NCBI GenBank assembly: GCA_016432445.1 | Contig: CP066689.1 | Location: 30,001-62,000, forward strand | DNA from: Candidatus Saccharimonadota bacterium | GTDB lineage: Bacteria > Patescibacteriota > Microgenomatia > UBA1406 > GWC2-37-13 | Reading direction: 5' to 3' | DNA length: 32,000 nucleotides | Part shown: in pieces, positions 7,174 through 32,000 of the stretch | Layout: each line of letters opens with the position of its first letter | Numbering within the stretch: position 1 is the stretch's first letter | The notes under the pieces: model-generated | What the model was told of the DNA's origin: nothing | The model's database searches: none | Seen by the model: only the letters and a program-made list of their open reading frames with translations | Translations under genes and position numbers: made by a program

Positions 7174-7247
7174 TCGGGGCGGGCAGACTTGAACTGCCGA
7201 CCTTTGGACCCCCAGCCCAACGTTCTAGCCATCTGAACTACGCCCCG
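7174..7247 (-). tRNA. tRNA-Pro (anticodon GGG)
   Basis: Manual cloverleaf: acceptor CGGGGCG/CGCCCCG, D arm GTTC-AGATGGCTA-GAAC, anticodon arm TTGGG-CTGGGGG-TCCAA (positions 34-36 = GGG, G37), variable AGGTC, T arm GGCAG-TTCAAGT-CTGCC, discriminator A. No CCA is encoded. Confidence 0.85.
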
Positions 7248-7521
7248 TTAGCTTAACATTAATATTATTATTCTTCATATAATCAACAATTAATTTTTTA
7301 ATATTCTTACCAAACCCTGTTTTATAGAATAACTCTCTAGAAATTGCATCTTTATCACAGTGATATTTTTCATAATATATGAGGGTAAAGGGTCCATTAT
7401 TTCTTGACCATGTATTTGATCCACTATTATGTTCCTTTAAACGTATAGTCGGATCTTTACTCGTCTTTCCTACATATACTTTATTATTTTTAATACTCTG
7501 TATGAAATAAACAAAAAACAT
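7225..7521 (-). CDS. GIY-YIG nuclease family protein (YhbQ/UPF0213-like, catalytic domain only)
   Basis: FFVYFIQS..NKVYVGKT.D...RLKEHNSG......N.PF.LIYYE.Y....DAISRE...K matches the GIY..YVG..R..EH..G...E core. The last 7 codons and the TAG stop (7225-7227) lie inside the tRNA-Pro gene. Confidence 0.8.
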   Translation of the reverse strand: MFFVYFIQSIKNNKVYVGKTSKDPTIRLKEHNSGSNTWSRNNGPFTLIYYEKYHCDKDAISRELFYKTGFGKNIKKLIVDYMKNNNINVKLTGRSSDG

Positions 7522-14346: not shown

Positions 14347-14432
14347 TAGATCTTAGATGTTAGATCTTGGATCTTAGAAATAAAACATCCAATATCGAAA
14401 ATCGAATGTCGAAGATCTAAGATCTCAGATCA
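14347..14432. repeat. B-type heptamer-periodic inverted repeat, likely a bidirectional terminator between convergent genes
   Basis: ttagatcttagatgttagatcttggatcttaga ... tcgaagatctaagatctcagatc is near-identical in arms to 314-398. Confidence 0.65.
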
Positions 14433-14439
14433 TAAATCA

Positions 14440-15246
14440 TTAAAAGCTTGTTACAAAAAAGTCTGAGGGTATCTGAGGATATGACTGGAAAAGCTGAACT
14501 CGTCTGGTAACCCCAGCTTGTGTTTTGGCTTCAGAGGAAATTATCTTGCCTTGAGTTTTAAGACTAGCTGATCCATCAAACCCAAGCCGTGTTCCGTTAC
14601 CTATTGCTCTTATTATCATCAGTTTAGCTTGAGCAGGCACAGTAATTGATGGACTAGTTCTACAGTTGTAAGCAATGTTTAATGATCCATCATTAATTGA
14701 AATAGGACTTGCTGAAATATCCAAACCTCTCTCTTCTGTATCAGAGGTTAAATTATCCCCTGTATCAGCTATATACCTAGTCAGTGTGTAGGTAGGAGAA
14801 ACCCCAGTCAATATACTTATTTCCAGCGCCATTAAACTACAACCCACTGAATCGCCATAATAAAGAGTAATATTGCCAATGTAAGGACTTCCGGCAAACG
14901 TGCCATTATAATAATCATCCAGATAAAAAGTATACTGCTGATCCTGGCTAACTCTCGCGGAATTAAACTTAGCAGGAACAGATACGCTAGCTATTGTTGT
15001 TTGTCCAGTAATGCCTGAACCAGACAAACTGGGAAGAGAATCCAAAACTACTGTTGCCGTACTTCCTGTTCCAAGCATTTGTTCTATACCGGCCTCAGCT
15101 GCAGCCAAAGCTTTTTGCGCTTCCTCCTCAAGTTTGGTTGTTTGAGTCTCAGTTATGCTTTTAAAGGTTATTGACATCACCACAGTTGAAACTGTAGCCA
15201 AAAGCATAATTACAATTAATAGCACCTGCCCTTTTTGGTTATTCAT
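14440..15246 (-). CDS. PilX_N-like type IV pilus minor pilin/assembly protein
   Basis: The N-terminus QKGQVLLIVIMLLATVSTVVMSITFKSI.ETQ......EAQKALAAAEAGIEQ matches the PilX N-terminal domain pattern (rG..Ll.al..l.vl..lg......e.......a..aAEaGle). Confidence 0.6.
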   Translation of the reverse strand: MNNQKGQVLLIVIMLLATVSTVVMSITFKSITETQTTKLEEEAQKALAAAEAGIEQMLGTGSTATVVLDSLPSLSGSGITGQTTIASVSVPAKFNSARVSQDQQYTFYLDDYYNGTFAGSPYIGNITLYYGDSVGCSLMALEISILTGVSPTYTLTRYIADTGDNLTSDTEERGLDISASPISINDGSLNIAYNCRTSPSITVPAQAKLMIIRAIGNGTRLGFDGSASLKTQGKIISSEAKTQAGVTRRVQLFQSYPQIPSDFFVTSF

Positions 15247-15251
15247 AAATT

Positions 15252-15332
15252 AAATCCAAAATCTAAATGATTTGAAATTTGATATTTGAAATTTGGATTT
15301 CATTTGACATTTGTAATTTGACATTTAGATTT
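15252..15332. repeat. A-type heptamer-periodic inverted repeat
   Basis: The sequence is aaatccaaaatctaaatga / tttgaaatttgatatttgaaatttggatttcatttgacatttgtaatttgacatttagattt. Confidence 0.65.
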
Positions 15333-15333
15333 A

Positions 15334-17613: not shown

Positions 17614-17655
17614 GTGTTGATGATAATAAAATCAGCGGTTTAATGCAAGTAAAAA

Positions 17656-19521
17656 TTACGGAAAGTATGGCTCTTCATGTTCATAAAGTTTATGTATATT
17701 TGATTTCCTAACCCACACCTGAGGCCATGGATCCATTGACCCCTTCAACGCCACTAAAATCCAATCTCCATCTATTCCTAATATCTCCACTCCTAATCCG
17801 TGCAAAACTGCCCCCCCACCCTTTATCCCAACTTTTCCATCTTTGGCTCCATCAGACCCATCATCATAGAGTATTGCTTCAATGACTTTAGTTGGGGTTT
17901 TATAGACTGGACCTGGAGTATTTTCTGCTTCTGGGGTAGGAGTATCTGCCGGTGGTTTTGGCGTGTTCGTTGGTTTTGGAGTGTTGGTTGCTTTTACCGT
18001 ACTCGTAGCTTTTGGCGACGCTACAGTAGCTGTTGGGTCAGGCTGAATCTCAACCTCATGATCTGTATCAACGTTCAGAGTACTGATAGTGATACTTCCA
18101 TCTTTACCGTTAGCCACAGATATTTGTTCTATCACCCCATTAGGAAAAAGCCCATTTAAAAAATTCCCTGCTTTACTGATATCTATAACTTTAATAACTT
18201 TTTTTCCGTCTTTGTCATTAAATATAGTTAGCGTTTTCTTTTCCTGATCATACTGCATAAAGATTTTACCGTCAGCCGGCTTAGGAAAAGATACACGAGA
18301 TGAAGGATTTGGACCAGTGCCGTCCCGGAAAGTAATACCCCATTGCGAACCATCATTACTCAAAGCAAGCTCCATTCTTAACGTACCGTTATACCAATCA
18401 TCACCTTCTTTTACTACGCCGCTAAAATATAGTGCATTGGAAGGACCCTCTATATTGTCTATCTTGACCTCAATGCCAAATTTGTTGCCGGTTGGAAGAG
18501 ATTTTGATTCAATTACTTTGACTGTCCTGTCTTTAGGACCAGGATTACTAAATGTTAAAGGTGCCTCATTAACATATTTTTTTAAGACATACCATAAGGG
18601 AACTGTTTCTCCTCGATTAGCTGTTGCAGTAGCAACTACTATTGGATTATCTGTCGGTGATGCCGCCGGGCTTGAAACTGTAGTTGCAGTAGATTTAATA
18701 CCTGTTGTTGGAGTCTCTTGGGGCTCAGCATAAGCTGTTTTTGGTGAGAAGAAACCGGAAATTTGTCCAAAATTAAAACTGCCTTTTCTGGGGTAATTAA
18801 TCTGTCTGCCGCTAGCTAAATCAGTTACTAAAATTCTTTCAACTTTTTCAGGGTCATCTACATCTTTCATTGCATCTTCACGGAATTTTTGGTCTTTTAT
18901 CAAAGCCCTTATTCTTGCTTCATACTGTTCTTGAGTTTCCCCAGCCTTAATCGGAGGAACAGTTTTATCCAGCCAGAAAGTTATATAAGGAATTTCTTCT
19001 TTACCCTTAAACGCGACCTCTTGAATGGCAACTTTTTTTTCGTTAGTAACCGCAAAAACTATTCCATTTGGTAAAAAATTCCACTCATTACCGTTTTTAT
19101 AAACAACATAAGTGTCACCCTTATCCATAAATATCCTCATAAATCCAATTGACTCCTCCCCCTTTTTACTCGCTTTTACATCTAAAACAGCCATAATTTT
19201 CCCATTATTATGTTCAGTTAACTGACCTTGTAATTTTGAATCAATGGAAGATGGAGCTATTTGTCGATAAATAAAATCACTTTCAACTGCTGGACGCTCA
19301 ATCGAAGGTATCGGAGGTTCATTGCTTGAAGGATTGCTGCAGCCTATCTGAAGTACAGCGCCAACACCTGCGGCCGCAAAAGACCCCATAGTTCTTCTAT
19401 TAAGATGAGGTAAATAACTATTTACGATATCTAAGACTAAAAGGGATGTAAAAAGAGCATGTCTGCCTTTATTCTCTACAGCTCCTCCTAAGTGTTTTAA
19501 TCCCTCGCTGATGTTAGCCAT
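17656..19521 (-). CDS. Putative lipoprotein with twin-Arg-like signal, T/P-rich linkers and C-terminal SH3b-like domain
   Basis: NRRTMGSFAAAGVGAVLQIGC has an RR pair followed by an L-x-x-G-C lipobox (Cys61, nt 19339-19341). The C-terminus GIDGDWILVALKGS....QVWVRKSNI resembles bacterial SH3 (SH3_3). The true start codon is uncertain. Confidence 0.5.
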   Translation of the reverse strand: MANISEGLKHLGGAVENKGRHALFTSLLVLDIVNSYLPHLNRRTMGSFAAAGVGAVLQIGCSNPSSNEPPIPSIERPAVESDFIYRQIAPSSIDSKLQGQLTEHNNGKIMAVLDVKASKKGEESIGFMRIFMDKGDTYVVYKNGNEWNFLPNGIVFAVTNEKKVAIQEVAFKGKEEIPYITFWLDKTVPPIKAGETQEQYEARIRALIKDQKFREDAMKDVDDPEKVERILVTDLASGRQINYPRKGSFNFGQISGFFSPKTAYAEPQETPTTGIKSTATTVSSPAASPTDNPIVVATATANRGETVPLWYVLKKYVNEAPLTFSNPGPKDRTVKVIESKSLPTGNKFGIEVKIDNIEGPSNALYFSGVVKEGDDWYNGTLRMELALSNDGSQWGITFRDGTGPNPSSRVSFPKPADGKIFMQYDQEKKTLTIFNDKDGKKVIKVIDISKAGNFLNGLFPNGVIEQISVANGKDGSITISTLNVDTDHEVEIQPDPTATVASPKATSTVKATNTPKPTNTPKPPADTPTPEAENTPGPVYKTPTKVIEAILYDDGSDGAKDGKVGIKGGGAVLHGLGVEILGIDGDWILVALKGSMDPWPQVWVRKSNIHKLYEHEEPYFP

Positions 19522-19528
19522 AGCAAGT

Positions 19529-19556
19529 TTATCCTATAGGATAATTATCCTATAAT
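19529..19556. promoter_or_regulatory. Perfect 16-bp palindrome plus a third half-site overlapping a TATAAT box in a divergent promoter region
   Basis: ttatcctataggataa (19529-19544) is self-complementary. ttatcctataat follows at 19545-19556, with TATAAT at 19551-19556, about 70 nt upstream of ATG 19626. Confidence 0.45.
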
Positions 19557-19625
19557 GTTGATTATAGCTAAAATTTATTGTTTTGCAAGCCCTATTTACT
19601 TCCTTTATACTTAAAGATATTTTTT

Positions 19626-20783
19626 ATGCGTATTTATCAACTGCTGACTTTCGCTGTTTTAGGATCAATTTTATTTTTTCCTTACCAATTAGATACACGG
19701 ATTAATTACATTATTTTTATCTTTGGAGTCTTGCTATTACCCCTTTTTATTAAAAAAATCCCGCTTTTATTTCATGTCTTTAAAGAAGATTTAGCACGTA
19801 AAAACTACACTTCATTATTTTTTATTGGATTAATTATCTCTACCCTTATCTCAACTTTTTTTTCCATAAATCTCTCATCTAGTATTTTTTCCTTAATTCT
19901 GATTGTTACCTATTTTATTGTTTTTCATACTGCTAAATTTATTTTTCCTGATAATAAAGCCAAAAATAGACTAATAATTTTTTTTGTATTAATAAATTTT
20001 TTTCTGGCAATTATCTCCCTTTATTACACACTTATTAATTATGGTGATCACACATCAGGCGGAGTCAGTTTTATGCGAGTGTACTTTGGACATAATCATC
20101 TCTCGGCCCTTCTGCTTTTTTCAATTCCTTTAAGCTTTTATTTATTAACCTGTTTAAAACAAAAAATTTATAAATTATTTTTTTGGATAATCTTTGTTTT
20201 CTTAATGATAAGTCTTTACCTTACTTTTGCCCGCGTCTCAATTATCTCTTTATTAACAACTTTCCTGATTACTTTTTTCCTTTTATTTAAAATAAATAAA
20301 AGAATATTAATCTTATCTACATTGGTATCCTCAATTATCATTATCTTTATGCTTGCAACTTCAGTAAAGCGAGCTCAAGAATTAAAAATAAGAAAGTTCA
20401 ATACACTAAGTTTATCTGTCAGACTAGGCTATTGGCAACAGTCTTTTGATAATTTTCTCCAGCATCCTTTAATAGGCTCTGGACCTGATACATTTCGGAT
20501 TGTAAGCAAAAAAAGTCCGCGCAATATAAAACCCTATACTTTCTTTTCCCACAATTTATTTATTCAGTTGCTAACAGATATGGGCATTATCGGTTTTATT
20601 GCTAATTTAGGACTATTAATTTCAATAATAATTTCCTCTTTTAAAAAACTGCAAAAATCAACCCCTATGATTTATGCTATCTGGATCGGTATGACAGCAT
20701 TAGTTATTAACGGATTATTTGATTATGATTGGCAGATAGCCAGTATTCCTTTTATCTTTTGGCTTCTGGCCGGAATATTGTAA
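19626..20783 (+). CDS. O-antigen ligase/Wzy_C family membrane protein (WaaL / PglL-PilO-like)
   Basis: The protein is polytopic. HPLIGSGPDTF....SHNLFIQLLTDMGIIGF is the Wzy_C signature region. The start is taken at ATG 19626 (MRIYQLL), because the ORF-track start at 19578 is a TTG. Confidence 0.7.
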   Translation: MRIYQLLTFAVLGSILFFPYQLDTRINYIIFIFGVLLLPLFIKKIPLLFHVFKEDLARKNYTSLFFIGLIISTLISTFFSINLSSSIFSLILIVTYFIVFHTAKFIFPDNKAKNRLIIFFVLINFFLAIISLYYTLINYGDHTSGGVSFMRVYFGHNHLSALLLFSIPLSFYLLTCLKQKIYKLFFWIIFVFLMISLYLTFARVSIISLLTTFLITFFLLFKINKRILILSTLVSSIIIIFMLATSVKRAQELKIRKFNTLSLSVRLGYWQQSFDNFLQHPLIGSGPDTFRIVSKKSPRNIKPYTFFSHNLFIQLLTDMGIIGFIANLGLLISIIISSFKKLQKSTPMIYAIWIGMTALVINGLFDYDWQIASIPFIFWLLAGIL

Positions 20784-20792
20784 TATCTTTAA

Positions 20793-22208
20793 ATGAAAAA
20801 TAAAAAAGAAAGACTAATACTTGGCTTAATAATATTAATAGGAGCTTTTCTTAGGTTCTTTAATCTGGGCAAAGAAAGCCTCTGGCTTGATGAGGCGTAT
20901 TCAGTAAAACTAGCCAATGTAAATTTTTTTCAAATTTGGGACAAGGTAAGAACAAGTGATGTCCATCCTCCTTTTTATTATATGCTACTAAACCTCTGGA
21001 TTAAAACCTTTGGTGACTCTGAATTTGCTGTACGTTCTCTTTCCGTAGTTTTTGGCATCTTAAGCATATTTATGATTTATAAATTAACACAACTGCTTTT
21101 TAATAAAAATACAGGCTTAGTTGCTGCTTTAATTTTAGCGTTATCACCTTTTCATATCCAATATTCTCAAGAAGCCCGTATGTACAACCTGCTGGTGTTT
21201 CTAATTATTCTTTCCATGTATTTTTTCGTAAAACTTTTGAATAACCCCAATGGCAAAATATTAATCGGTTACTTGCTAACAGGAACATTGTTAATGTATA
21301 CCCATTATTATTCTGTATTTATATTTATTGCTCAAAATATTTATTTATTTATTTACGCTATTTTTTTTAAAAAAGATAAAAACTTAATTAAAATCTGGCT
21401 CATTTTACAGATAGTGTTATTCTTCTCTTTTTTTCTTTGGATATTAGTTTTTATCAAACAAATTCATAGCTCCGCGGCATCGTGGATTCCCCCACCAACG
21501 ATCAATCTACTTGGCCAAACATTTTTATCTTACTCGGGATCAGAATATTTATTAATCATGTTTTTAATCTTATTACTAATAAATAATCATTTTAAAAAGA
21601 GCATTCAAAATGGATCATTTTTATTAATATGGCTTTGGATACCTATCATTTTGCCCTATGTAATTTCTATATTCTTTATGCCCATATATACTATCAAAGT
21701 AACTATTGTCGCAATGCCGTCATTCTATATTTTAGTAGCCAAAAAAATAAACGATATTAACCGAAACTTTATAAAATGGTCTTTTATTGGAGCCATGATT
21801 ATTTTTTCCCTAATTATCTTATGGCAGAAAAACATGCATATTTACAAAGAGCAATGGAGGGAAGTTGCTCATTACATTGACGCGCAAGCTATCAAGGGAG
21901 ATGTGTTGTTATTTAATGAACCTTATCTTCAAATACCTTTTGATTATTATTCTAAAAGAAATGACATTAAAAGAATCCCTCTTAATTTTAATACTTCTTT
22001 AGAACTTACTGAAAAAGAAAAAAATGATTTAAAGGGAATTACCGAAAAATATCAAAGATTTTGGTTTATACAATCTCATATTACCAATGCAAAGATCGTT
22101 CAAAAAAATCTTAATAGTTCTTTTAAAAAAGTCTTTTGCCAACAGTATAAAAATATTAAAGTATGCCTTTTTATAAAACGCCTTAAACCACTCAATGCAC
22201 ACTATTGA
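20793..22208 (+). CDS. GT-C glycosyltransferase, family 39/83 (PMT_2 / ArnT-like)
   Basis: The N-terminus has RFFNLGKESLWLDEAYS (first-loop D-E motif), DVHPPFYYMLL and ALSPFHIQYSQEARMYN, with about 11 TM helices and a soluble C-terminal domain. Confidence 0.75.
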   Translation: MKNKKERLILGLIILIGAFLRFFNLGKESLWLDEAYSVKLANVNFFQIWDKVRTSDVHPPFYYMLLNLWIKTFGDSEFAVRSLSVVFGILSIFMIYKLTQLLFNKNTGLVAALILALSPFHIQYSQEARMYNLLVFLIILSMYFFVKLLNNPNGKILIGYLLTGTLLMYTHYYSVFIFIAQNIYLFIYAIFFKKDKNLIKIWLILQIVLFFSFFLWILVFIKQIHSSAASWIPPPTINLLGQTFLSYSGSEYLLIMFLILLLINNHFKKSIQNGSFLLIWLWIPIILPYVISIFFMPIYTIKVTIVAMPSFYILVAKKINDINRNFIKWSFIGAMIIFSLIILWQKNMHIYKEQWREVAHYIDAQAIKGDVLLFNEPYLQIPFDYYSKRNDIKRIPLNFNTSLELTEKEKNDLKGITEKYQRFWFIQSHITNAKIVQKNLNSSFKKVFCQQYKNIKVCLFIKRLKPLNAHY

Positions 22209-23649
22209 AAAATTTCTACACAGTGTAATTTGGTTTTCCTTAGGTTTAGTCCTTCACAGAATTAAATATATTCTGCTTAGTCTTATTGTATTTCAGCTTG
22301 GAACTACCAATGTTGCCATCTTTTATATAAGTATTTATTTAATGACAGAGTTTTCTTCTTTTGCCAATAGGCTCACTTCATCAAGCTACAACCGATTCTT
22401 AAGAGATAAAAGATTTAGCTTTGATAAAGAGCATCTTAATGCTGTCATAAACTCTACACTTCAACTTTCGCTAATCTTGGGATTAATAAACGCTTTGATG
22501 ATCTTTTTTCTTGCTGACCCAATCGCTAATCTTATTAAAAACAGCTCTTTCTCACAGACTATAAAGCTTATGTCACTGGCTGTACCTTTTCTTGTAGTCA
22601 CAAATCAAGTCATCCAGATATTGTCCTTGCTTACAAAATATAAAGAAGCTGTAATATTTCATAATATTATCGAATCTCTGCTTGTCTTATCTTTTGCCGG
22701 AATTGCTTTAACTTTTTTTAAGCCATCTATCTACACTATCCTTTCCTGGCAAATCGCGGCCATCATAATCTCTTTCATTATTGCCTTAGGACTGCTCTAC
22801 CGCAGTTTACCTAGTTTCAAACTAAATCTAACCTTACTGGCAATTCCTATCAGGATATCCTCAGTTATTTTTTTAAACTCAACCTTTATTTTACTACTGA
22901 ATCATATTGATATTTTTATAGTTGGGGCATTATTTGGAAGCAAACAGTTAGGAAGCTATATCGGCCTGCTTGTTGCTCCTCACCTTATTTATGCCATTGC
23001 CACTAATGTGTTTGGAATGTTTATACATACCGCCGATTCTTTTTTTGCAGATACCAAAAAAGTTACTGTTTTTTCAAGAAAAGTCATTGAATCAATACTT
23101 ATCTTAGCTTCGCTTTTAACGCTGTTTTTGCTTCTTTTTCCACAAGAAACTCTTCAAAATATTCTAAGATTGCATATCAGAATTGAACCTTTAACCTTAA
23201 AACTGCTTTCATTGTCTTTTTTTATCCGTATAATTGCCTGGATGGCAGGCCAAATTCTTATTGTAACTAAACATTCTGATAAAAATATGCAGATTAATGT
23301 TTTTATCTCATTAATTGCTGCTCCTTTATTTATATTTTTTATTCCTAAATATGGTTTTTTTGGAGCTTCTTTATCTTTCCTATTAATTTCTCTTTGTGAT
23401 GTTTTACTTAAAACATTATTTGTTTATACCAAAACTTCTGTATCCTTTATCTCCGTCAAAGCTATAAAAATCTTATTAATAGGATTATTTTTTTATATAA
23501 TTAATGGGCTTGTACCAGTAAACTTTAATTTTTTTGTTATCTATTTTCCTTTTTTGTTTATAGCAGTTTTATTTTTACTAAAGGGTATTGAGCTTGAGGA
23601 TTTTATTTTGTTAAAACACAAACTTAATAAAAAAAATAATGCTGAATAA
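22195..23649 (+). CDS. Polysaccharide biosynthesis / Wzx-like (MOP superfamily) flippase
   Basis: This is a 484-aa protein with about 12-14 hydrophobic helices, positioned between GT genes. Its start overlaps the upstream stop by 14 nt and its stop overlaps the downstream start by 11 nt. The assignment rests on topology and context only. Confidence 0.5.
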   Translation: MHTIEKFLHSVIWFSLGLVLHRIKYILLSLIVFQLGTTNVAIFYISIYLMTEFSSFANRLTSSSYNRFLRDKRFSFDKEHLNAVINSTLQLSLILGLINALMIFFLADPIANLIKNSSFSQTIKLMSLAVPFLVVTNQVIQILSLLTKYKEAVIFHNIIESLLVLSFAGIALTFFKPSIYTILSWQIAAIIISFIIALGLLYRSLPSFKLNLTLLAIPIRISSVIFLNSTFILLLNHIDIFIVGALFGSKQLGSYIGLLVAPHLIYAIATNVFGMFIHTADSFFADTKKVTVFSRKVIESILILASLLTLFLLLFPQETLQNILRLHIRIEPLTLKLLSLSFFIRIIAWMAGQILIVTKHSDKNMQINVFISLIAAPLFIFFIPKYGFFGASLSFLLISLCDVLLKTLFVYTKTSVSFISVKAIKILLIGLFFYIINGLVPVNFNFFVIYFPFLFIAVLFLLKGIELEDFILLKHKLNKKNNAE

Positions 23650-26600
23650 AAAAAACAACTCCATAACAATATCTATAATTACCCGTAATAGAGATCAATC
23701 ACTTAAAAGATGTCTTATATCGTTATGCCAGCGAACAATTCATCCTAAAGAAGTATTAATTATAGATAATGACTCAAAAGACAACACAAAAAAAGTAGTA
23801 AATTATTTCTCTAATCTCTTACCCATCCGCTATATTCATGAACCAAAAATTGGTATTCCTTTCGCAAGAAACAGAGCTTTAAAAGAAGCTAAAGGTGAAA
23901 TACTGGCCTTTATTGATGATGATTGTGAAGCCACCCCCAACTGGATTGAAGAAATCTTGAAAGCTCATAAAAAATATCCTCAGGCTGCTGCCATTCAGGG
24001 AAAAAATATTGTAAAACCTAAAAATATATTTACTTACCTTCATTATGAACTTTATAAGCTATGGATAAACCAAAATAAAAAAAAAGATAAACTCTTTGTC
24101 CTAGATACGAAAAATGTCTCTTTTAAATTAAAAGTTATTAAACAAGCGAAAGTTAAGTTCGATCCGGGTTTTAGCCGCTGTTCTGATGTGGATTTCGGCA
24201 AACAGATTTTATTTAAAGGATTAGACATTGTATATTTGCCCCAGATAATAACGTATCACTGGGAAAACAATGTTCTTAATCTTTTAATTAAAGATTACGC
24301 CAAAGGTTTAGGAAATGCTAAATTAAGATATAAATGGACCAAAGAATTCACGGAATCAGAAGAAAAGAAAATAAAGTATCACAATAAAATTAACTCAATT
24401 AAAGTTGGCTTACCCTTACCTCAAAAGATCTTCGTAAGTTTTTGCTTAAAACTAAACCGTACTATTTTTAATTTGGGTCTTGATTATCAAAATCAGATGG
24501 ATATTTTAAAAGTCAGCCGCATTAAAGTTTTCAACAACACAGTTTCTGCTGCAATAGTTACAAAAAATCGCCCTAAATCACTCCAAAAATGTTTAATGTC
24601 TCTTGTCAAACAGACTATTCTTCCAAAAGAAATATTAATTATCGATAGTTCTGATGACGACAAAACAAAAAAGTTAATTAGTCTATTTAAAAGACAACTT
24701 AATCTTAAGTATATTTTCGAAAGTAAAACAGGAATCAGTAATGCTAGAAATAGAGCTTTAAAAGAAACAGCAGGTGAAATATTAGCCTTTATTGATGATG
24801 ATTGTGAAGCTTCCCCAAACTGGATTGAGGAAATCGTTAAAGCTCATCACAAATATCCTCAAGTCGTAGCTATCCAGGGGAGCTGCTCTATTTTTCCTAA
24901 GGATGATTTACTCAGCTCTGTTAGCCAAGAGGAATATGACATATGGATATCAAATAATTTAAAAAAAGATAATAAACTTTTTACCCTTGATCTAGAAAAT
25001 TCCTCATTTAAAACAGCTCTTCTTTCTAAATTAGACTTATCCTTTGATCCTTTTTTCACAAAAAATTATTACTGTGAAGATATTGATTTTGGTAAAAAAT
25101 TATTGGCTAAAAAACAAATAATAATTTATTATCCCCTTATAAAAATAGGCAGTTGGAGAAGAAAATCATTATTATCTTTTTTAAAGCAACGTTTTTTGAA
25201 AGGAAAAGGGAGAGCGTTAATTGATTATAAATGGGAACCTGCATTCGGCTTGCTAAAAATTAACCGTCTGATAAAACCTCTTGTTCCTCAAATTAAATTA
25301 ACTTCCATTTTTTTTAGAAAAATTTCGTGGATTTCAAAAACAGTTTTTCAACTGGGTGAAAACATTGAAAAAATAAAAATCTTGTACTCACGTTTATCTT
25401 ATCAAAATCCTCAAATGATCTCTTATATAATCGATTCTTTAGCCCTTATCAAGAAAAATTCCGATAAAAAAATTATTAATAAGTTTTTATATCGATTAAT
25501 TTTCTTGTTTATATTTCGCTCTAAAAAAAAAGATTTTCACTATAATCGCCAGCAAATTATTGAGAATAAAATAAATAAAATTTACGTCAGTGTTGCCATA
25601 AGAACTAAAAACATTAATGAATTGTTTAAAAAACTCGTTTTTTTTTCCAAAATAAAAAAAAGGCCTGATGAAGTAATCATTCTAACCTATCAAAAATGGA
25701 AATTTTTAAAGGATATCTCCTTTATCTTTTCACCTTTCTTTCGTACTCAATTTATCTTTGTAAAAGATCTACAATATAAGGAAAATATTAAAAATATTAT
25801 TAATGAGGCTCAAGGAAAAATACTTACTTTTATAGATGATGATTGTGAAGCTACCCCAAACTGGATTGAAGAAATCATAAAGACCCATCAAAAATTTCCT
25901 GATACTGCCGCTATTCAAGGAGATATCGTAATGAGAAAAAAAGAGCTTTTATTTCCACTGATCATCAGAACCATCTTTAAACTACAAATGAAACATAATT
26001 CCAATAAAGATGGACTATTATCCTACATTAATATAAAAAATATCTCTTTTAAAAAAAATCACCTTAAAGATATAGATTTAAAACTTGATAATGAGTCTCC
26101 TAGTGGAGCTTTAACAGATGTTGGAAGACAACTTTTTTTGAAAAACAAAAAAATAATTTACTGCCCAGAAATACGCAATTATATAAAATTTACCAACATA
26201 CTAAAGTTTTTAAAACAAGGATATGAAGACGGCCAGCTTCAAGCCAAACTTAATTACGACTGGCAAGGAGTAATTCCTAAAAAACCTCTCAAGCCTTTAA
26301 TAGAAGACTACCAAATAGTCGTGAATAATATGTTAAAAGCTCTTTCTTTATCCTATATTTCCAAACTACTCTCTAAGATCTTTTTAAAGATATATTTAGT
26401 TTTATTTAAAATCGGCTTCTACCGCATGAGTAATTTCTACCACATGAGTAACAAGTTTATTTTTACAGATAATAAAATATTTCAAGCTTATTTTTCTAGA
26501 AAAGAAGATATCTCAGTTGCTATAATCACCCACCAACATGACCAACTACTCAAGTCGTGTCTTTTATCTTTAGTAAAACAAACAATTTATCCTAAAGAAA

Positions 26601-29227
26601 TACTAATTATAGATAATGATTCAACAAACAACACAAAGGAAGTTATAAATTCTTTTTCTAATGTCTTACCCATACGCTATATTCATGAATCTGTTGTAGG
26701 TATCCCTTATGCCAGAAACAGAGCTTTAAAAGAAGCAACAGGTGAAATCCTTACCTTTATTGATAATGATTGTGAAGCTTCCCCAAACTGGATTGAAAAA
26801 ATCGTAAAAGCTCATAAAAAATTCCCTAATGTCGCTGCCATTCAGGGAGATATTTTATATAAATCAGATATACTGTCTTCAATCATACTTAAGCTCTTTT
26901 TTAAAATGCAAATTAATCATAACTTAATTAAAGAAAAATATCTTTCTTTTATCAATATTAAAAATATTTCTTTTAAAACTAAAGTCGTAAAATCCCTTTC
27001 CTTTGATGAAAACTTTTTACAAGAGTATTCTATTGACTTTGCCCGCCAGCTTGTATTAAATAAACAAAACATTTTATATCTTCCTCAAATTATTACCAAT
27101 AATAACCAATCTCAATCAATTATTAGTTTCTTAAAGGAATCACCCCACAAAGGCAAAGAACATGCAAAACTTGAATATAAATGGTGTAGTATGCTTCCTA
27201 AAAAAAACCTCTTTAACTTGTTAACCGAACATGAGCCATATTTGAAAACAATGGGCAAATCTATTCACTTTTTTTATCGCCCCATATTATATAGCATATA
27301 TAAAATTTACAAAGAATTATTTAGACAAGGATTTTTAAAAAATAAAAGAAAAGCTTTAATTGAAAATTTAGAGAGAATCACCTTAGAAAAAAATAAAGAC
27401 CTCAATATTTCTATTGCCATAATCACTCTTAATAGATATCAATCATTAGAAAAATGCTTGTTTTCTTTAGCTAAACAGTCAATCTATCCAAGAGAAGTAT
27501 TAATTATAGATAATGGCTCAACAGATAATACAAAAAAAATCGTTGATTCCTTCTCCAATGTCTTACCCATCCGCTATATTTATGAATCTGTAAGTGGTAT
27601 CCCTTATGCTAGAAATAGAGCTTTAAAAGAAACAACAGGTAAAATATTAGCCTTTATTGATGATGATTGTGAAGCTACCTCCAACTGGATTGAGCAAATT
27701 GCTAACTCCCACAAAAAATTCCCTAATGCTTCCGCTATCCAGGGAATAGCTTATTGCAAATACAAAGATCCCTATAGTTTTTTATCCCAAAAATACCATC
27801 TGAATTGGCTTCATAAAAATCTTAAAGATAACAATGAAATTTCAATCATTGATACCAAAAATGCATCTTTTAAAATCAGCTTTATAAATAATCTTAATCT
27901 TTCTTTTGATACTAATCTTTTAAGAGGATCTGATGCTGATTTTGCTAAACAAATTATATTAAAAGGAGGGAAAATATTTCATGATCCTTTTATTAAAATA
28001 TATTTCAAACCAAGAAACAGTTTGAAAAGTTTCCTAGATCATCGCTTTCAAGTTGGCTATTACAACGCCAAACTTCGCTATAAATGGGGTAAGGATTTAA
28101 ATAAAGATTTGAAAACATCCACACTTAGTTTTAAATATCCTCCAGATAAACTTATCCAAATATTAATTTTAGGGAATCTGGCGCGATTATATTACTCTTT
28201 AGGGCAAGTTTTCGGAAATATTAAAAAATACTATGATTATGAACGGCTTATTAAAATAACCTCCTCTCCATCTGATTATCTCTACAAAAGGAAAAAACAA
28301 GTGAAATTAGCTGTAATGATCATAACCAAAGATCGATATGATTCATTAATCAAAACACTTATTTCTCTGAAAAATCAAACTATGAAACCTGATCAAATTA
28401 TTATTGTTAATTCATCTGTAAATGCAGATATTCCTTTTATGTCAAAATTCAAAGAACTTCCGATATCTCAGGTCATTGAAAAAAGAATGGGTTTCGGTAT
28501 CGCACGCAATACAGCACTAAAAAAGATTAGAACGGATATCATAGCTACTATAGATGACGATGAAGAAGCACCGAAAGATTGGTGCCAAAAAATTATTGAG
28601 ACTCATCAAGAATTTCCTGAAGCTGCAGCCATACAAGGAAGATTGATATGCCAGCCTGAACGCTCTATTTATGCCATAACCGAACAAATAAAATTAGATC
28701 GGTGGTTCTTAAGCAAAATAAATTATCAAAATCGTATTTATACTATGAGCACTAAAAACGTCTCTTTTAAAACTGCATTTATTAGAGCCAACAATTTAAA
28801 ATTTAAGACTGATGATCTTCACGGAAAATATGGAGGCGAAGATATTGACTTTTCTAACCAGCTTTTATCTAAAAAATTAACAATAATTTATTCACCCCAA
28901 ATAACAGTTTTTCACCAAGAAAGATCAAGTCTTTTTTCATATTTATCACAACAGTCTAGAAAAGGTTCCTCAAGAGCTCTAATTAAAAGAAATTGGGGAT
29001 CATTTGAAAAAACTATTCCCAAATTTTTATCTATGAACTATAAAAGTAAGTTAGATATCCTATTTCATCCTTCAATAAAAAAAAATATATATCTTTTGCC
29101 GCTAATAATTACTGTTTATTTTTTATCATTAATTGCTTATGCTAAAGGTTTAAAAGATTTAGAAAAAGAGTTAAAATTATCTCCTGTTCAATCTCCTCTT
29201 TCATCATCAAAATTGACAGCCATATAA
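23639..29227 (+). CDS. Giant multi-module glycosyltransferase: six tandem GT2 (GT-A fold) modules plus a C-terminal TM helix
   Basis: Six repeats carry [IV]-x-I-[IV]-T-x-N-R ... I-I-D-[NS]-x-S ... ARNRALKE ... F-I-D-D-D-C-E-A-x-P-N-W-I-E-E-I ... AAIQG. The first D of each DxD motif is at nt 23915, 24794, 25835, 26762, 27659 and 28553. The hydrophobic segment IYLLPLIITVYFLSLIAYA lies near nt 29086-29150. Confidence 0.85.
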   Translation: MLNKKNNSITISIITRNRDQSLKRCLISLCQRTIHPKEVLIIDNDSKDNTKKVVNYFSNLLPIRYIHEPKIGIPFARNRALKEAKGEILAFIDDDCEATPNWIEEILKAHKKYPQAAAIQGKNIVKPKNIFTYLHYELYKLWINQNKKKDKLFVLDTKNVSFKLKVIKQAKVKFDPGFSRCSDVDFGKQILFKGLDIVYLPQIITYHWENNVLNLLIKDYAKGLGNAKLRYKWTKEFTESEEKKIKYHNKINSIKVGLPLPQKIFVSFCLKLNRTIFNLGLDYQNQMDILKVSRIKVFNNTVSAAIVTKNRPKSLQKCLMSLVKQTILPKEILIIDSSDDDKTKKLISLFKRQLNLKYIFESKTGISNARNRALKETAGEILAFIDDDCEASPNWIEEIVKAHHKYPQVVAIQGSCSIFPKDDLLSSVSQEEYDIWISNNLKKDNKLFTLDLENSSFKTALLSKLDLSFDPFFTKNYYCEDIDFGKKLLAKKQIIIYYPLIKIGSWRRKSLLSFLKQRFLKGKGRALIDYKWEPAFGLLKINRLIKPLVPQIKLTSIFFRKISWISKTVFQLGENIEKIKILYSRLSYQNPQMISYIIDSLALIKKNSDKKIINKFLYRLIFLFIFRSKKKDFHYNRQQIIENKINKIYVSVAIRTKNINELFKKLVFFSKIKKRPDEVIILTYQKWKFLKDISFIFSPFFRTQFIFVKDLQYKENIKNIINEAQGKILTFIDDDCEATPNWIEEIIKTHQKFPDTAAIQGDIVMRKKELLFPLIIRTIFKLQMKHNSNKDGLLSYINIKNISFKKNHLKDIDLKLDNESPSGALTDVGRQLFLKNKKIIYCPEIRNYIKFTNILKFLKQGYEDGQLQAKLNYDWQGVIPKKPLKPLIEDYQIVVNNMLKALSLSYISKLLSKIFLKIYLVLFKIGFYRMSNFYHMSNKFIFTDNKIFQAYFSRKEDISVAIITHQHDQLLKSCLLSLVKQTIYPKEILIIDNDSTNNTKEVINSFSNVLPIRYIHESVVGIPYARNRALKEATGEILTFIDNDCEASPNWIEKIVKAHKKFPNVAAIQGDILYKSDILSSIILKLFFKMQINHNLIKEKYLSFINIKNISFKTKVVKSLSFDENFLQEYSIDFARQLVLNKQNILYLPQIITNNNQSQSIISFLKESPHKGKEHAKLEYKWCSMLPKKNLFNLLTEHEPYLKTMGKSIHFFYRPILYSIYKIYKELFRQGFLKNKRKALIENLERITLEKNKDLNISIAIITLNRYQSLEKCLFSLAKQSIYPREVLIIDNGSTDNTKKIVDSFSNVLPIRYIYESVSGIPYARNRALKETTGKILAFIDDDCEATSNWIEQIANSHKKFPNASAIQGIAYCKYKDPYSFLSQKYHLNWLHKNLKDNNEISIIDTKNASFKISFINNLNLSFDTNLLRGSDADFAKQIILKGGKIFHDPFIKIYFKPRNSLKSFLDHRFQVGYYNAKLRYKWGKDLNKDLKTSTLSFKYPPDKLIQILILGNLARLYYSLGQVFGNIKKYYDYERLIKITSSPSDYLYKRKKQVKLAVMIITKDRYDSLIKTLISLKNQTMKPDQIIIVNSSVNADIPFMSKFKELPISQVIEKRMGFGIARNTALKKIRTDIIATIDDDEEAPKDWCQKIIETHQEFPEAAAIQGRLICQPERSIYAITEQIKLDRWFLSKINYQNRIYTMSTKNVSFKTAFIRANNLKFKTDDLHGKYGGEDIDFSNQLLSKKLTIIYSPQITVFHQERSSLFSYLSQQSRKGSSRALIKRNWGSFEKTIPKFLSMNYKSKLDILFHPSIKKNIYLLPLIITVYFLSLIAYAKGLKDLEKELKLSPVQSPLSSSKLTAI

Positions 29228-29238
29228 AACATTAATCT

Positions 29239-29907
29239 TTATTGGATTCCCCACTGCTTCATCCTCTTTCCTAAAAATAAAAGGAGATAATTAATCGGTA
29301 AATAAACAAAATAGGCAAGAATCGCAGTTACGATAAATATCATTGGAAAATCATTAAAGCCATTGTAAAAGGAAGAAAAATATAATTTGCAACTTTCTGT
29401 CATTCTAACTCCTTCGCTTCTCACGCAATTAATGTTTTCACCAAAAGGATCAGGCAAAATATAAGCCAAGACTGCGACTATGCTTGCGAAAAAATAGGCA
29501 CCAAGCCATCCTAGCCTATGAATTTTTTTAGTTACTAAAAGACCCGCCACAAGAGCCGGAACGAGAAAAAGATGATAACTAGTTACAATAAATTTAAATT
29601 TAGAATAACTTGCCTTAAAGGCATAATCGGCCACTTGAACTATATCTGCTTTTAAAAAAAAATTAGAAATAAAACTGATCGTCCAAATACTCTCGTTTAT
29701 AACTAATGCGCAAAACATAGAAGTTATAAGGAAACTGTTTCTTGTCATAAGAGCTATTGTAGTTAATCCTAAACCTGTAGCTGAATACCATAACATTCTT
29801 TGAGGAGCCTTCAAGATAAATATCTTCAGATAAGCATCTGCTAACCAAAAAGCAAAAGTTATAAGGCTTATAAAAAATAAAGGATCCTTTAGTTTTTTCT
29901 TAAGCAT
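29239..29907 (-). CDS. Polytopic membrane protein, unknown function
   Basis: This 222-aa ORF has about 6 hydrophobic helices. It is convergent with the giant GT ORF, with an 11-nt gap. Confidence 0.5.
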   Translation of the reverse strand: MLKKKLKDPLFFISLITFAFWLADAYLKIFILKAPQRMLWYSATGLGLTTIALMTRNSFLITSMFCALVINESIWTISFISNFFLKADIVQVADYAFKASYSKFKFIVTSYHLFLVPALVAGLLVTKKIHRLGWLGAYFFASIVAVLAYILPDPFGENINCVRSEGVRMTESCKLYFSSFYNGFNDFPMIFIVTAILAYFVYLPINYLLLFLGKRMKQWGIQ

Positions 29908-29934
29908 CTTTAAGAAAATTATTTAAAAACTAAT

Positions 29935-30654
29935 CTATATAACGAAAGTACTCACGATTTGATTGAAAATCTTTTCGAAACCCTTCTGCCATTTTTCTTC
30001 AAAACTAATTCCTGTAATTACAAAAATAAAATCATTATTTTCAAAAAAAATACTTTTTCCATGAAATGAGGTCAAAGCTAAACCCATTTTTACCTCTATT
30101 TCATACTTCTTTTTATCAAAAACGTTTAATGCTTCATCTTTTATAAAGTCTACCTTATTAAAACTATTTAATAGTTCTTTATCCTCATCTATAATATTTT
30201 TTAGTATGTAAGTCTTTTTATCTTTAATTCTTATATAAAGCCTGTTCTTAAACAAATTATCAGATTTCGGATCTACAAACATCATATCCACAAATGACAA
30301 ATATTTATTAAAGCTTTGTTTTTGATTATCGTTTAAAAATTTTGAAATAGTTCCTAAATTTTCTATATTTAAATCCTTAGTCTGCACCCAATTTTTGGGT
30401 AAAATAATCGTGTAGTTATATTTCGTACTTTTATAGTAAGAACGGGTATCTTTTGATACAGCAGGCTTTTTTATGGGCGTTGGAGAAATCAGAGACCTTT
30501 TACCGCTATTCGAATACTCTTCTTTTAACTTTATAGCAATAAAAATTGCTAAAACAATTAAAATTAGTAGAATAATATATTTTTTATAAGATTTTTTTTT
30601 CTCTACAGAGACTATTAAATTACCTGAGTCATTAGGTAAATTTTGATCTTGCAT
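29935..30654 (-). CDS. Single-pass membrane-anchored hypothetical protein
   Basis: A Lys-rich N-terminus is followed by one TM segment (YIILLILIVLAIFIAI) and a ~180-aa external domain. No motif was recognised. Confidence 0.5.
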   Translation of the reverse strand: MQDQNLPNDSGNLIVSVEKKKSYKKYIILLILIVLAIFIAIKLKEEYSNSGKRSLISPTPIKKPAVSKDTRSYYKSTKYNYTIILPKNWVQTKDLNIENLGTISKFLNDNQKQSFNKYLSFVDMMFVDPKSDNLFKNRLYIRIKDKKTYILKNIIDEDKELLNSFNKVDFIKDEALNVFDKKKYEIEVKMGLALTSFHGKSIFFENNDFIFVITGISFEEKWQKGFEKIFNQIVSTFVI

Positions 30655-30705
30655 ATAAAAATGATACCATAATATTCTTCAACATAGCTTTTGCTAATAT
30701 TCCTT

Positions 30706-31452
30706 TTAGATATCTAAAGCTTTCTTTAAAACTAAGTAGATAAATTTAATATTACCAATAGTATACCTTTTCCAGAGTCTTCGCGGCTCCTGTTTTAATC
30801 TATAAACCCACTCTAGCCCTATTTTTTGCATCCAAACGGGAGCTCGCGGCAAATAGCCTGAGATAACATCAAATAAAGCTCCTACAGACCAAAATACATG
30901 CACATCAAGTTTCTTTAAGTTTTTATAAATCCATTTCTCCTGAGTTGTCGAACCCATTCCTACTAATAAAATCGTCGGTTTTTTGATGTTTATATTTTTT
31001 AGAATATTTTTTTCTTTCCTAAGGTTGAAATAACCATTGTGATAACCCAAAATCTTTAGTTTAGGAAATTCCTTTTTTATTTTATTAAGTGCTTTTCTAA
31101 TCGATTCCTCTTTAGCTCCGATAAAATAAAATGACCATCCTTCTTTTTCTGCGAGCGAAAATATTTTATTTATAAAATCAGGAGTAGGAGTTCTATCAAA
31201 TAAAGGATCACCTAAAATTTTTGAGGCAAAAACTGGTCCGTAACCCCCTGAATAAATCAAAGATGCCTTGTTTAAAATATTTTTGTAAGTTTCATCTTTT
31301 TGAGCCAACAGAAGACAATAAGCATTTACATAAAAAATAGTGAGCTTTTTTTTGGAAGATATAATTAAATTTTTTATGATAAAAACGATATTTTGGGGAT
31401 GAGTTGCAGCTATTGAAACACCCAAAATATTTTTTTTCGCATAAGTAAGCAT
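30706..31452 (-). CDS. WecB/TagA/CpsF family glycosyltransferase (GT26)
   Basis: YVNAY....A..D..Y..IL..A.L...GGYG........LG, the GY.NGYF motif (GYHNGYF), KPTILLVGMGSTTQEKWI, VGALFD..SG...RAP.WMQK.GLEW.YRL..EPRRLWKRY are all present and together form the characteristic GT26 signature. Confidence 0.85.
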   Translation of the reverse strand: MLTYAKKNILGVSIAATHPQNIVFIIKNLIISSKKKLTIFYVNAYCLLLAQKDETYKNILNKASLIYSGGYGPVFASKILGDPLFDRTPTPDFINKIFSLAEKEGWSFYFIGAKEESIRKALNKIKKEFPKLKILGYHNGYFNLRKEKNILKNINIKKPTILLVGMGSTTQEKWIYKNLKKLDVHVFWSVGALFDVISGYLPRAPVWMQKIGLEWVYRLKQEPRRLWKRYTIGNIKFIYLVLKKALDI

Positions 31453-31476
31453 AAGGAATCAGAAAAGTATATCATA

Positions 31477-31974
31477 TTATTTTATAGATGAAGAAGGCGA
31501 AGCGTTTTTATCTTCTAGTATATTTACGCTATAAAGATTCCAAGTTTTCTTTTTGAAATTAAAGCTAACATTTAAATCAATATTTTGTCCTTTTTTTAGT
31601 GCATTTAAATTTGAAGTCATTTTTTTACCATTGCTACTTAAAGTTATCTTTGTTGATTTTTCAACTATAAAAGTAGGGATTTCATCATCTTTAAAATCGG
31701 TAACCAGTTCTTGACCTTTAGAGTCTTTCTTAATATCGTTTATAACCACTCGGATAACATAAGTTATGTAGGTGGAACGAACTGCCTGATTATTTATATT
31801 TATTGAAGGAAGAACTACATTATTTGAGTCAGGATTCACTATCTTTGTTGGAGAAATAGAGATTTGTTCTGTTGTTGATTTAGACACTCCTGCCTTTCCA
31901 AAATAGATAAAAAGTTCAACCAAAATAATAATAACTAAAAATATTAAGGGAATTAAAAGAAATGATCTATTCAT
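31477..31974 (-). CDS. Single-pass membrane-anchored hypothetical protein
   Basis: An N-terminal TM segment (FLLIPLIFLVIIILVELFIYF) is followed by a ~130-aa external domain. It sits first in the minus-strand run with the GT26 gene. Confidence 0.5.
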   Translation of the reverse strand: MNRSFLLIPLIFLVIIILVELFIYFGKAGVSKSTTEQISISPTKIVNPDSNNVVLPSININNQAVRSTYITYVIRVVINDIKKDSKGQELVTDFKDDEIPTFIVEKSTKITLSSNGKKMTSNLNALKKGQNIDLNVSFNFKKKTWNLYSVNILEDKNASPSSSIK

Positions 31975-32000
31975 TTAAAAAAGTATGGCATATTTTCAAT

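Follow-up and report, generated by a model that had tools for sequence, protein, structure and literature searches.

What does a bacterium with a genome of little more than 1 Mb make with a single gene that encodes six consecutive glycosyltransferase modules, and how many of these modules can still work as enzymes? The question is raised by a stretch of 32,000 nt of contig CP066689.1 (assembly GCA_016432445.1, positions 30,001 to 62,000), called the window in the following, which belongs to a metagenome-assembled genome of Candidatus Roizmanbacteria, a member of the candidate phyla radiation (CPR). An earlier reading of the bare sequence, here called the original prediction, had described six family 2 glycosyltransferase (GT2) modules (M1 to M6) fused in one open reading frame (ORF) and suggested that the protein could be an assembly line for a defined multi-sugar repeat unit. 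Our analysis confirms the six modules and points to a different division of labor: the protein would be a membrane-tethered array that builds a lipid-linked cell-surface glycan, with about four catalytic modules and with M3 and M4 in non-catalytic roles. We consider this reading somewhat more probable than all its competitors together.

Positions 23639-29227 of the plus strand form, as predicted, one intact ORF of 1862 aa, and its product is identical to QQG44338.1, annotated as 'glycosyltransferase'. Across the same interval the two other frames contain 156 (frame 2) and 234 (frame 3) stop codons. Given the base composition of about 29% GC, a stop-free frame of this length has a chance of ~1e-68; the ORF is a real gene and not a chance open frame. 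In Pfam, PF00535 (Glycos_transf_2) matches the protein in six separate stretches (E=1.8e-136, 451 bits in total vs a cut-off of 23.3). All 15 module pairs can be aligned with each other, with E-values of 3e-18 to 2e-79 and 26-52% amino acid identity. The predicted module starts coincide with beta1 strands to within 3 nt, and the DxD motifs lie where they had been placed, at aa 93, 386, 733, 1042 (DND), 1341 and 1639, reading DDD in five modules and DND in M4. In each module, a catalytic domain of ~210 aa precedes basic amphipathic helices that occupy 60-110 aa. With module limits set at aa 1-295, 296-640, 641-951, 952-1249, 1250-1548 and 1549-1862, the gene is laid out as follows.

23639..29227, plus strand: six-module GT2 ORF; its ATG stands at the head of an 11-nt overlap with the Wzx gene upstream
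23639..24523, plus strand: M1, aa 1-295; full signature (T15, N17, R18, D43, R77, N78, D93-D95, D183, H207)
24524..25558, plus strand: M2, aa 296-640; core signature kept; longest tail/linker, ~110 aa
25559..26491, plus strand: M3, aa 641-951; apparently degenerate; hydrophobic tail at aa 904-928
26492..27385, plus strand: M4, aa 952-1249; probably impaired (N17Q, R18H, D94N, D183S, H207N)
27386..28282, plus strand: M5, aa 1250-1548; core signature kept; corresponds to the first module of the two- and three-module relatives P0027 and P0020
28283..29224, plus strand: M6, aa 1549-1862; apparently near-intact; counterpart of module two in P0027 and P0020 (52-53% identity)
29087..29143, plus strand: C-terminal transmembrane helix, aa 1817-1835, IYLLPLIITVYFLSLIAYA; Kyte-Doolittle mean over 19 residues 2.14

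The catalytic state of the modules was judged in an alignment of all six with 86 single-module relatives taken from a search of 1.84 billion representative proteins. Twenty-seven columns are kept in at least 80% of these single-module relatives, which themselves depart from them at a median of 2 and at most 11 positions. M1, M2 and M5 each show one departure, M4 shows five, M6 six and M3 13. The Asp in the position of the catalytic base, a role of D183 that is deduced from alignment, and the nucleotide-binding residues R18, D43 and R77/N78 are all present in M1, M2 and M5; M6 is without D43, M4 without R18 and D183, and M3 without R18, D43, R77, N78 and D183. D183 is Asp in 94% of the single-module relatives and aligns, in a profile alignment, with the Asp of 'GGED' in the A1 domain of K4CP, the chondroitin polymerase of E. 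coli K4. It is a candidate catalytic base, as it occupies what we take to be the position of the base in inverting enzymes of the GT-A fold, namely the E-D of TarS and the GGEDDD of beta4Gal-T1.

In three of the six modules, TxNR, IIDNxS and ARNRALKE are not all found as stated in the original prediction. M3 reads RTKNI, IILTYQ and KENIKNIINEA in their place; its losses include R18 (replaced by I), D43 (T), R77 (I), N78 (K) and D183 (L), and it keeps DDD, QG and N159. Glycosyltransferase models of NCBIfam match M3 only from about residue 80 onward, none of them matching its first ~80 aa; across the whole array the NCBIfam matches are far under their cut-offs and belong mostly to transferases of the exopolysaccharide type. 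M4 reads THQH and DND and has lost N17, R18, D94, D183 and H207. D94 is Asp in 97% of the single-module relatives. The loss of H207 is uninformative, since otherwise intact modules of relatives have His, Phe or Ser there according to module type. In M6, the motifs read IIV-NSS, ARNTALKK and DDDEEA, the beta2 Asp (D43) is deleted and the pair C25/C96 is changed to T/E. AAIQG, also ascribed to every module, is exact in M1, M3, M4 and M6 only.

In our reading of these alignments, three modules (M1, M2, M5) appear fully intact, M6 near-intact, M4 doubtful and M3 degenerate. Residues that are gone from M3 and M4 are kept by 94-98% of family members, and they include the Asp aligned to 'GGED' of K4CP. 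This speaks against six catalytic steps; M3 and M4 are probably inactive, and four seems a better estimate of the number of intact modules than six. Apart from the catalytic residues, C25 and the Cys of DDDC (position 96) are each conserved in 92% of the family; both change in M6 (T and E), M3 is gapped at C25, and the two may form a contacting pair.

Among the relatives, modules with missing residues are a regular occurrence. Across 29 multi-module relatives, the core residue set is complete in 82 of 105 modules and at least one core residue is gone in the other 23. In nearly every relative with at least four modules, one is degenerate, either the last (P0003-5, P0007-12) or the third (P0013, P0014, P0016), and P0017 has two, the third and the fourth. 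Judged by conserved residues, degenerate modules thus appear to be a recurrent trait of the longer members of the family.

How the array came to have six modules can be approached through these relatives. A word-indexed search of 5.8 billion proteins returned 18 other proteins at E<=1e-20, all of them multi-module and none with a best local identity above 45%. An exhaustive profile search revealed a graded family of one to six modules, in which the window protein is the largest member.

One module: ~300 aa, many members
Two modules: ~620 aa, several members
Three modules: 917-996 aa, several members
Four modules: ~1230 aa, several members
Five modules: 1515-1587 aa, P0002, P0004 and P0005
Six modules: 1825 and 1862 aa, P0003 and the window protein

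The correspondence of modules across this family is not colinear. Modules one and two of P0027 and P0020 are counterparts of M5 and M6, in that order, with identities of 48-53%, which is as close as any paralogous pair inside the window protein. An M6-type module is found once in almost every relative, and counterparts of M1 and M2 occur at various positions. M3 and M4 have no reciprocal best match among the modules of relatives; their best matches are internal (M4-M1 52%, M3-M4 39%), and by this comparison they are lineage-specific internal duplicates. The survey of module counts also turned up one relative that is split: on contig L084 (8198-13657), a two-module GT2 gene (595 aa) lies directly upstream of a four-module gene (1218 aa). 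Judged from its sequence, this pair appears to be a divided version of the six-module array and to speak for fusion or fission of modules.

The multi-GT2 family is rare in the collections scanned, since matches are few both in species representatives and in metagenomes. Among 185,579 GTDB species representatives there is one close multi-module match (L003, at least four modules, truncated by the contig end); the remaining loci contain distant GT2 proteins, nearly all single-domain, and the genome of the window itself was not among the matches. In the JGI metagenomes, the module profile brought up just L091, L092 and L093 as further relatives, and the M3-M4 segment as query gave none. The six-module architecture is rare and not unique: P0003 is a second six-module member, and unrelated proteins with six, eight and nine GT2 stretches exist, none of which was found as characterized in the open-access literature searched.

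The original prediction had explained long nucleotide identities between M1, M4 and M5 by recent intragenic duplication or gene conversion. The identities themselves are real (76-82%), but in each module they extend only over about nt 70-365, and all pairwise DNA alignments end at one boundary near nt 360, at the AIQG motif. In the N-terminal third, M1, M2, M4 and M5 share 59-70% amino acid identity with a proportion of synonymous differences (pS) of 0.42-0.58. Beyond it, only 32-40% of residues are identical in the middle part and fewer still in the tail, with a pS of ~0.6-0.8, which is effectively saturated for an AT-rich genome. No two modules share an exact match longer than 35 nt. As synonymous sites are near saturation and exact matches this short, the module duplications are old; M1 and M4 (pS 0.42) may have a somewhat more recent common ancestry in their N-terminal part. 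Recent gene conversion was rejected as the source of the identity, for the alignments stop at a domain boundary and pS within them has already reached 0.42-0.58. The pattern fits a conserved donor-binding subdomain, with a shared type of donor, combined with a diverged acceptor side.

Repeats within a gene raise the suspicion of an assembly error, in which an interior segment would have been misplaced between repeat copies and the true gene would contain fewer modules. The repeats concerned are these.

24777..24811, plus strand: 35-nt exact in-frame repeat, M2 copy, AAATATTAGCCTTTATTGATGATGATTGTGAAGCT; encodes ILAFIDDDCEA with the DxD motif; contigs L088 and L089 end inside it
27642..27676, plus strand: 35-nt exact in-frame repeat, M5 copy; contig L086 begins inside it

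Independent Logan contigs (k=31), reached through the neighboring WecG and Wzx genes, are 100% identical to the window where they cover it: L088 (10 samples) spans 14356-24806, L089 spans 18358-24806 and L086 (13 samples) spans 27647-32000. Their coverage up to 24806 and from 27647 onward leaves a gap that opens in one copy and closes in the other, and a join across the repeat of M2 and M5 would remain in frame; both points favor an artefact. The contigs break within the copies, as is expected of a repeat longer than the 31-nt graph word; the graph branches there, which fits the presence of the interior segment in those samples (10 and 13). Moreover, any ordinary read spans 35 nt, the deposited contig has a length of 1.10 Mb (1,103,789 bp), all 1862 codons are read without interruption, M4 resembles M1 of the same gene more than any other module, and four, five and six fused modules occur in relatives from unrelated assemblies. 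Given these observations, we regard an artefact as extremely unlikely. Recombination between the in-frame 35-nt copies would be expected to delete the segment from the C-terminal part of M2 through the N-terminal part of M5 and to leave a three-module protein; this would be a specific route to the changes in module number that the original prediction had envisaged. A further repeat of 31 nt is common to M2 (24798-24828) and M4 (26766-26796).

Structure prediction supports the assignment of the modules. An AlphaFold2 model of M1, built from an alignment of 92 sequences, reached a mean predicted local distance difference test score (pLDDT) of 92.8 and a predicted template-modeling score (pTM) of 0.90. 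It shows a GT-A domain up to about residue 210, followed by helices at 212-241, 244-253 and 260-294. A Foldseek search of the PDB matched it with probability 1.00 to TarP, AvpGT, K4CP, TarS, WrtF and SpsA, with E-values of ~1e-14 to 1e-12 for the single-domain enzymes among them. The highest query-normalized template-modeling (TM) scores were obtained for two membrane GT2s, PcManGT (0.68) and the hyaluronan synthase of Chlorella virus (0.64), with the tail helices covered. This suggests that the tail helices predicted for M1 are counterparts of the membrane-interface helices of these enzymes. For the di-module M5-M6, AlphaFold2 gave a pLDDT of 87.8 and a pTM of 0.81, and GT2 crystal structures were again matched at probability 1.00, so that the GT-A fold is indicated by prediction for M1, M5 and M6, the modules that were modeled. 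Model match, GT-A fold and DxD motif together place the window protein in GT2.

Only one transmembrane helix in the 1862 aa is unambiguous, that at aa 1817-1835. As had been foreseen, the other tails are amphipathic, that of M3 (aa 904-928) being borderline hydrophobic. All six modules carry a net positive charge of 14-27. In several single-module relatives the tail position is occupied by a truly hydrophobic terminal helix, and for this reason the ancestral unit looks like a tail-anchored or monotopic GT2. A membrane-embedded processive synthase of the BcsA, HAS or NodC type was considered and rejected, for neither Q..RW nor [QR]..RW occurs anywhere in the protein and it has only one transmembrane helix.

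What the array may be working on is indicated by its neighbors, which are of the kinds expected for the assembly of a lipid-linked glycan.

19578..20783, plus strand: Wzy_C-family membrane protein (O-antigen ligase/polymerase type), E=5e-20; first gene of the operon
20793..22208, plus strand: PMT_2 glycosyltransferase (GT-C, ArnT/PMT-like); found only in the locus of the window
22195..23649, plus strand: Wzx-type flippase (Polysacc_synt_3), E=3.8e-11
29239..29907, minus strand: 222-aa polytopic membrane protein; no Pfam or NCBIfam family
30706..31452, minus strand: WecG/TagA-family glycosyltransferase (PF03808), E=1.1e-56

Wzy_C, PMT_2, Wzx and the GT2 array form a plus-strand operon with short gaps or overlaps. 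Convergent to it and downstream of the array follow the 222-aa polytopic membrane protein, a 239-aa membrane-anchored protein, WecG/TagA and a 165-aa anchored protein. Scans for promoters and terminators gave as many matches in the window as in shuffled sequence. Past the right end of the window, positions 35-1684 of L086 encode a penicillin-binding protein (PBP_dimer and Transpeptidase domains) at the head of the minus-strand operon, which links the glycan locus to cell-wall synthesis.

The loci of relatives L001, L002, L083, L084 and L085 (Logan, NCBI and ENA) and L091 (JGI) were compared with this arrangement. In the first five, WecG follows the multi-GT2 gene convergently (5/5; 52-58% identity to the window copy), and it adjoins the gene in all six loci (52-59%). 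Wzy_C is found upstream in four of the first five, the contig of L085 starting too near the gene to show one, and three of these four are detectably similar to the window copy (~26% identity). The 222-aa membrane protein has homologues in four of the relatives' loci (40-52% identity), in L002 and L084 as a tandem-duplicated fused form of ~454 aa, and may belong to the same glycan system. Export genes depend on the lineage: L091, the closest relative, with five intact modules, has a Wzx homologue (47% identity) that overlaps the start of the array gene as in the window, with WecG downstream, and ABC2_membrane/ABC_tran pairs lie near the multi-GT2 gene in L001, L002, L083 and L085. On contig L092 (1-2916), an ORF that runs off the contig and spans at least 972 aa contains two family GT2 modules and a C-terminal region resembling the window Wzx (26% identity over 424 aa), with WecG downstream; it appears to be a GT2-GT2-Wzx fusion.

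WecG/TagA enzymes act on undecaprenyl-diphosphate-linked N-acetylglucosamine, and Wzx and ABC-2 transporters both export undecaprenyl-diphosphate-linked glycans. Outside the membrane, Wzy_C proteins polymerize or ligate such glycans in the pathways for O-antigen, enterobacterial common antigen (ECA) and teichoic acid. Since the linkage to WecG is invariant and the exporter alternates between Wzx and ABC-2, the array would act at the cytoplasmic face on a lipid-linked primer, a placement that also agrees with tails that are basic and amphipathic and with one anchor at the C-terminus. On this basis the following course can be proposed, in which substrate, order of action and number of sugars added are those that we infer. 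A polyprenyl-diphosphate-sugar primer made elsewhere would be extended by the neighboring WecG/TagA. The array, tethered at the cytoplasmic face by its C-terminal helix, would then add sugars to the WecG product, one by each intact module (M1, M2, M5, M6) and about four in total. Each intact module might form a different linkage, as is suggested by the divergent acceptor-side halves, and M3 and M4 would serve as spacers or acceptor-binding scaffolds. The finished lipid-linked glycan would be flipped by the co-transcribed Wzx and, outside the membrane, polymerized by Wzy_C or ligated by it to an acceptor; further decoration by the PMT_2 enzyme is possible.

The transporters of the relatives bring in the strongest competing explanation. 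The intact modules might instead act cyclically on a WecG-primed lipid-linked chain, making the protein a glycan polymerase in which degenerate modules serve as spacers or chain-length rulers. In the four ABC-type loci the transporter pair lies next to WecG, in one of them together with a Glyphos_transf (TagB/F-like) gene, and TagA/WecG priming is typical of such pathways in the synthesis of wall teichoic acid and ECA. Furthermore, two bifunctional GT2 polymerases, K4CP (family profile E=4.8e-46) and PmHS2, are the closest in sequence among proteins of solved structure. Set against this is the translational coupling of the window and L091 genes to a Wzx flippase. The window has the WecG/TagA adjacency of a TagA-primed, ABC-dependent wall glycopolymer pathway, but a TagGH-like ABC-2 transporter was found neither in the window nor in the 1.7 kb past its right end; the combination of a Wzx flippase with a Wzy/WaaL-type (Wzy_C) protein in the same operon is that of a Wzx/Wzy pathway. 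In Foldseek alignments of the M5-M6 model, both domains of K4CP and PmHS2 were aligned in order with TM-scores of 0.25-0.32 and a root-mean-square deviation (rmsd) of 20-22 Å, so that the predicted arrangement differs from that of the known two-domain polymerases. Finally, the three to five intact modules, varying among relatives, fit oligosaccharide units of variable size more simply. Taken together, a polymerase seems rather unlikely.

The PMT_2 gene suggests yet another role, in which some modules, such as the membrane-anchored M6, would be polyprenyl-phosphate sugar synthases (DPMS, GtrB or ArnC type) feeding lipid-linked monosaccharides to the PMT_2 GT-C enzyme of the same operon, so that part of the protein would work for glycosylation outside the cytoplasm. 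The top structural match of M1 to PcManGT and the presence of DPMS among the sequence matches agree with such a function, and a possible protein target adjoins the operon in the form of a secreted Cys-rich protein with Pro/Thr-rich linkers. The M5-M6 unit is kept, however, in relatives without a nearby PMT_2 gene, the family signature points to glycan acceptors, its 'ED' motif aligning with K4CP A1, and the sub-threshold NCBIfam matches are mostly to exopolysaccharide-type transferases. We therefore rate this role as improbable.

The secreted protein is encoded at 15334-17613 on the minus strand and comprises 759 aa, 35 of them cysteines, with a signal peptide and linkers rich in Pro and Thr (DTPVPTDTPVP, PTPTT); no Pfam family matches it. 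Its gene lies in a GC-rich patch (0.43-0.48 vs ~0.29 in the glycan locus). It may be a surface protein that carries O-glycans. The corresponding position in L083 is taken by large Laminin_G_3 proteins.

Several points weigh against the membrane-tethered array as we describe it. Its topology at the cytoplasmic face is deduced from hydropathy alone. M4 retains D185 and a nearby Glu, which makes a shifted catalytic base conceivable, and M3, with DDD, QG and N159 in place, might bind a different donor. The C-terminal part of M2, M3, M4 and the N-terminal part of M5 are covered by the deposited 1.1-Mb contig only. An initiating phosphoglycosyl transferase of the WecA or WbaP type was not found among the scanned ORFs of at least 80 aa in the 32-kb window; it may be encoded elsewhere in the genome. 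In addition, relatives with ABC-2 transporters resemble pathways of the polymerase type and not those of the repeat-unit type.

A stricter version of the array proposal holds that the order of modules dictates the order of sugars, that M3 and M4 are spacers or scaffolds for handing on the acceptor, and that gain, loss and shuffling of modules, including recombination at the M2/M5 repeat, diversifies the surface glycan. We consider such colinearity distinctly unlikely. If true, the array would be a carbohydrate counterpart of the modular logic of polyketide synthases and nonribosomal peptide synthetases, and rearrangement of modules would diversify the surface glycan of episymbiotic CPR bacteria.

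Comparison with characterized systems shows what is common and what is particular in this protein. K4CP (PDB 2Z86/2Z87) and PmHS2 (8VH7), the best sequence matches among solved structures, likewise carry tandem GT2 domains of the GT-A fold in one chain, and the match of the family profile to K4CP A1 (E=4.8e-46) extends across DxD and 'GGED'. They have two modules vs six in the window protein, no amphipathic tail per module and no transmembrane anchor, and they are encoded in capsule (kps) loci, unlike the window protein with its WecG/Wzx/Wzy_C context. Degenerate modules such as M3 and M4 have not been described for them. Their inter-domain geometry differs from that predicted for M5-M6 (TM-score 0.28-0.31, rmsd ~21 Å), and by this measure the window protein is probably not a polymerase of the K4CP type. 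The single-domain GT2s TarP/TarS, AvpGT, WrtF and SpsA, which use lipid- or polymer-linked acceptors, have the GT-A fold in common with the modules, and TarS and TarP work with a DxD motif and a catalytic Asp; they are separate single-module proteins with only 13-19% identity to the modules of the window.

Precedents for parts of the architecture exist outside bacteria. The chlorovirus PBCV-1 protein A111/114R has three domains of ~300 aa in one polypeptide and was proposed to add successive sugars of one glycan (PMC7826918). Its three domains are of different kinds, and it is viral, soluble and devoted to an N-glycan core, whereas the window protein consists of six paralogous GT2 modules. In the heparan sulfate polymerase EXT1-EXT2, one of four glycosyltransferase domains is catalytically inactive and yet retained (doi 10.1101/2022.06.19.496623), a precedent for pseudo-glycosyltransferase modules like M3 and M4; the enzyme is a eukaryotic heterodimer of GT47/GT64 domains with no sequence kinship to the GT2 array. 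Sequence databases also contain uncharacterized giants, namely P0098 with nine GT2 stretches, P0065 with eight GT2 and three GT4 stretches together with tetratricopeptide repeats and a methyltransferase, and P0034 with six; they belong to distant GT2 subfamilies, match the module profile only partially and include other types of domains. In the open-access literature, neither a characterized protein with six paralogous GT2 modules nor anything relevant on glycosyltransferases of CPR bacteria or Roizmanbacteria was found.

While two- and three-domain glycosyltransferase fusions are established, a characterized counterpart with this many paralogous modules was not found. The series from one to six modules, with recognizable module types and recurrent dead modules, represents a tractable system for asking whether module order encodes glycan sequence, what role pseudo-glycosyltransferase domains play, and how fusion relates to the efficiency of lipid-linked glycan assembly. 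The six-module gene takes up 0.5% of the 1.1-Mb genome and adjoins a penicillin-binding protein and candidate surface glycoproteins, so that its glycan product probably plays a central part in the cell envelope and possibly in attachment to the host.

Elsewhere in the window, upstream of the glycan locus, a 784-aa coupling ATPase of the TraG/VirD4/HerA type (11097-13451, plus strand) and a protein of 268 aa whose N-terminus is weakly of the PilX_N type (14440-15246, minus strand) look like components of secretion or a pilus. Positions 1516-1890 encode a small member of the 23S rRNA intervening-sequence family and positions 7225-7521 a free-standing GIY-YIG nuclease domain protein, both on the minus strand. 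Between them, at 3477-4058 on the minus strand, lies the gene of a 193-aa protein that matches the DOT1 histone-methyltransferase family (PF08123, E=1.6e-19), here in a CPR bacterium.

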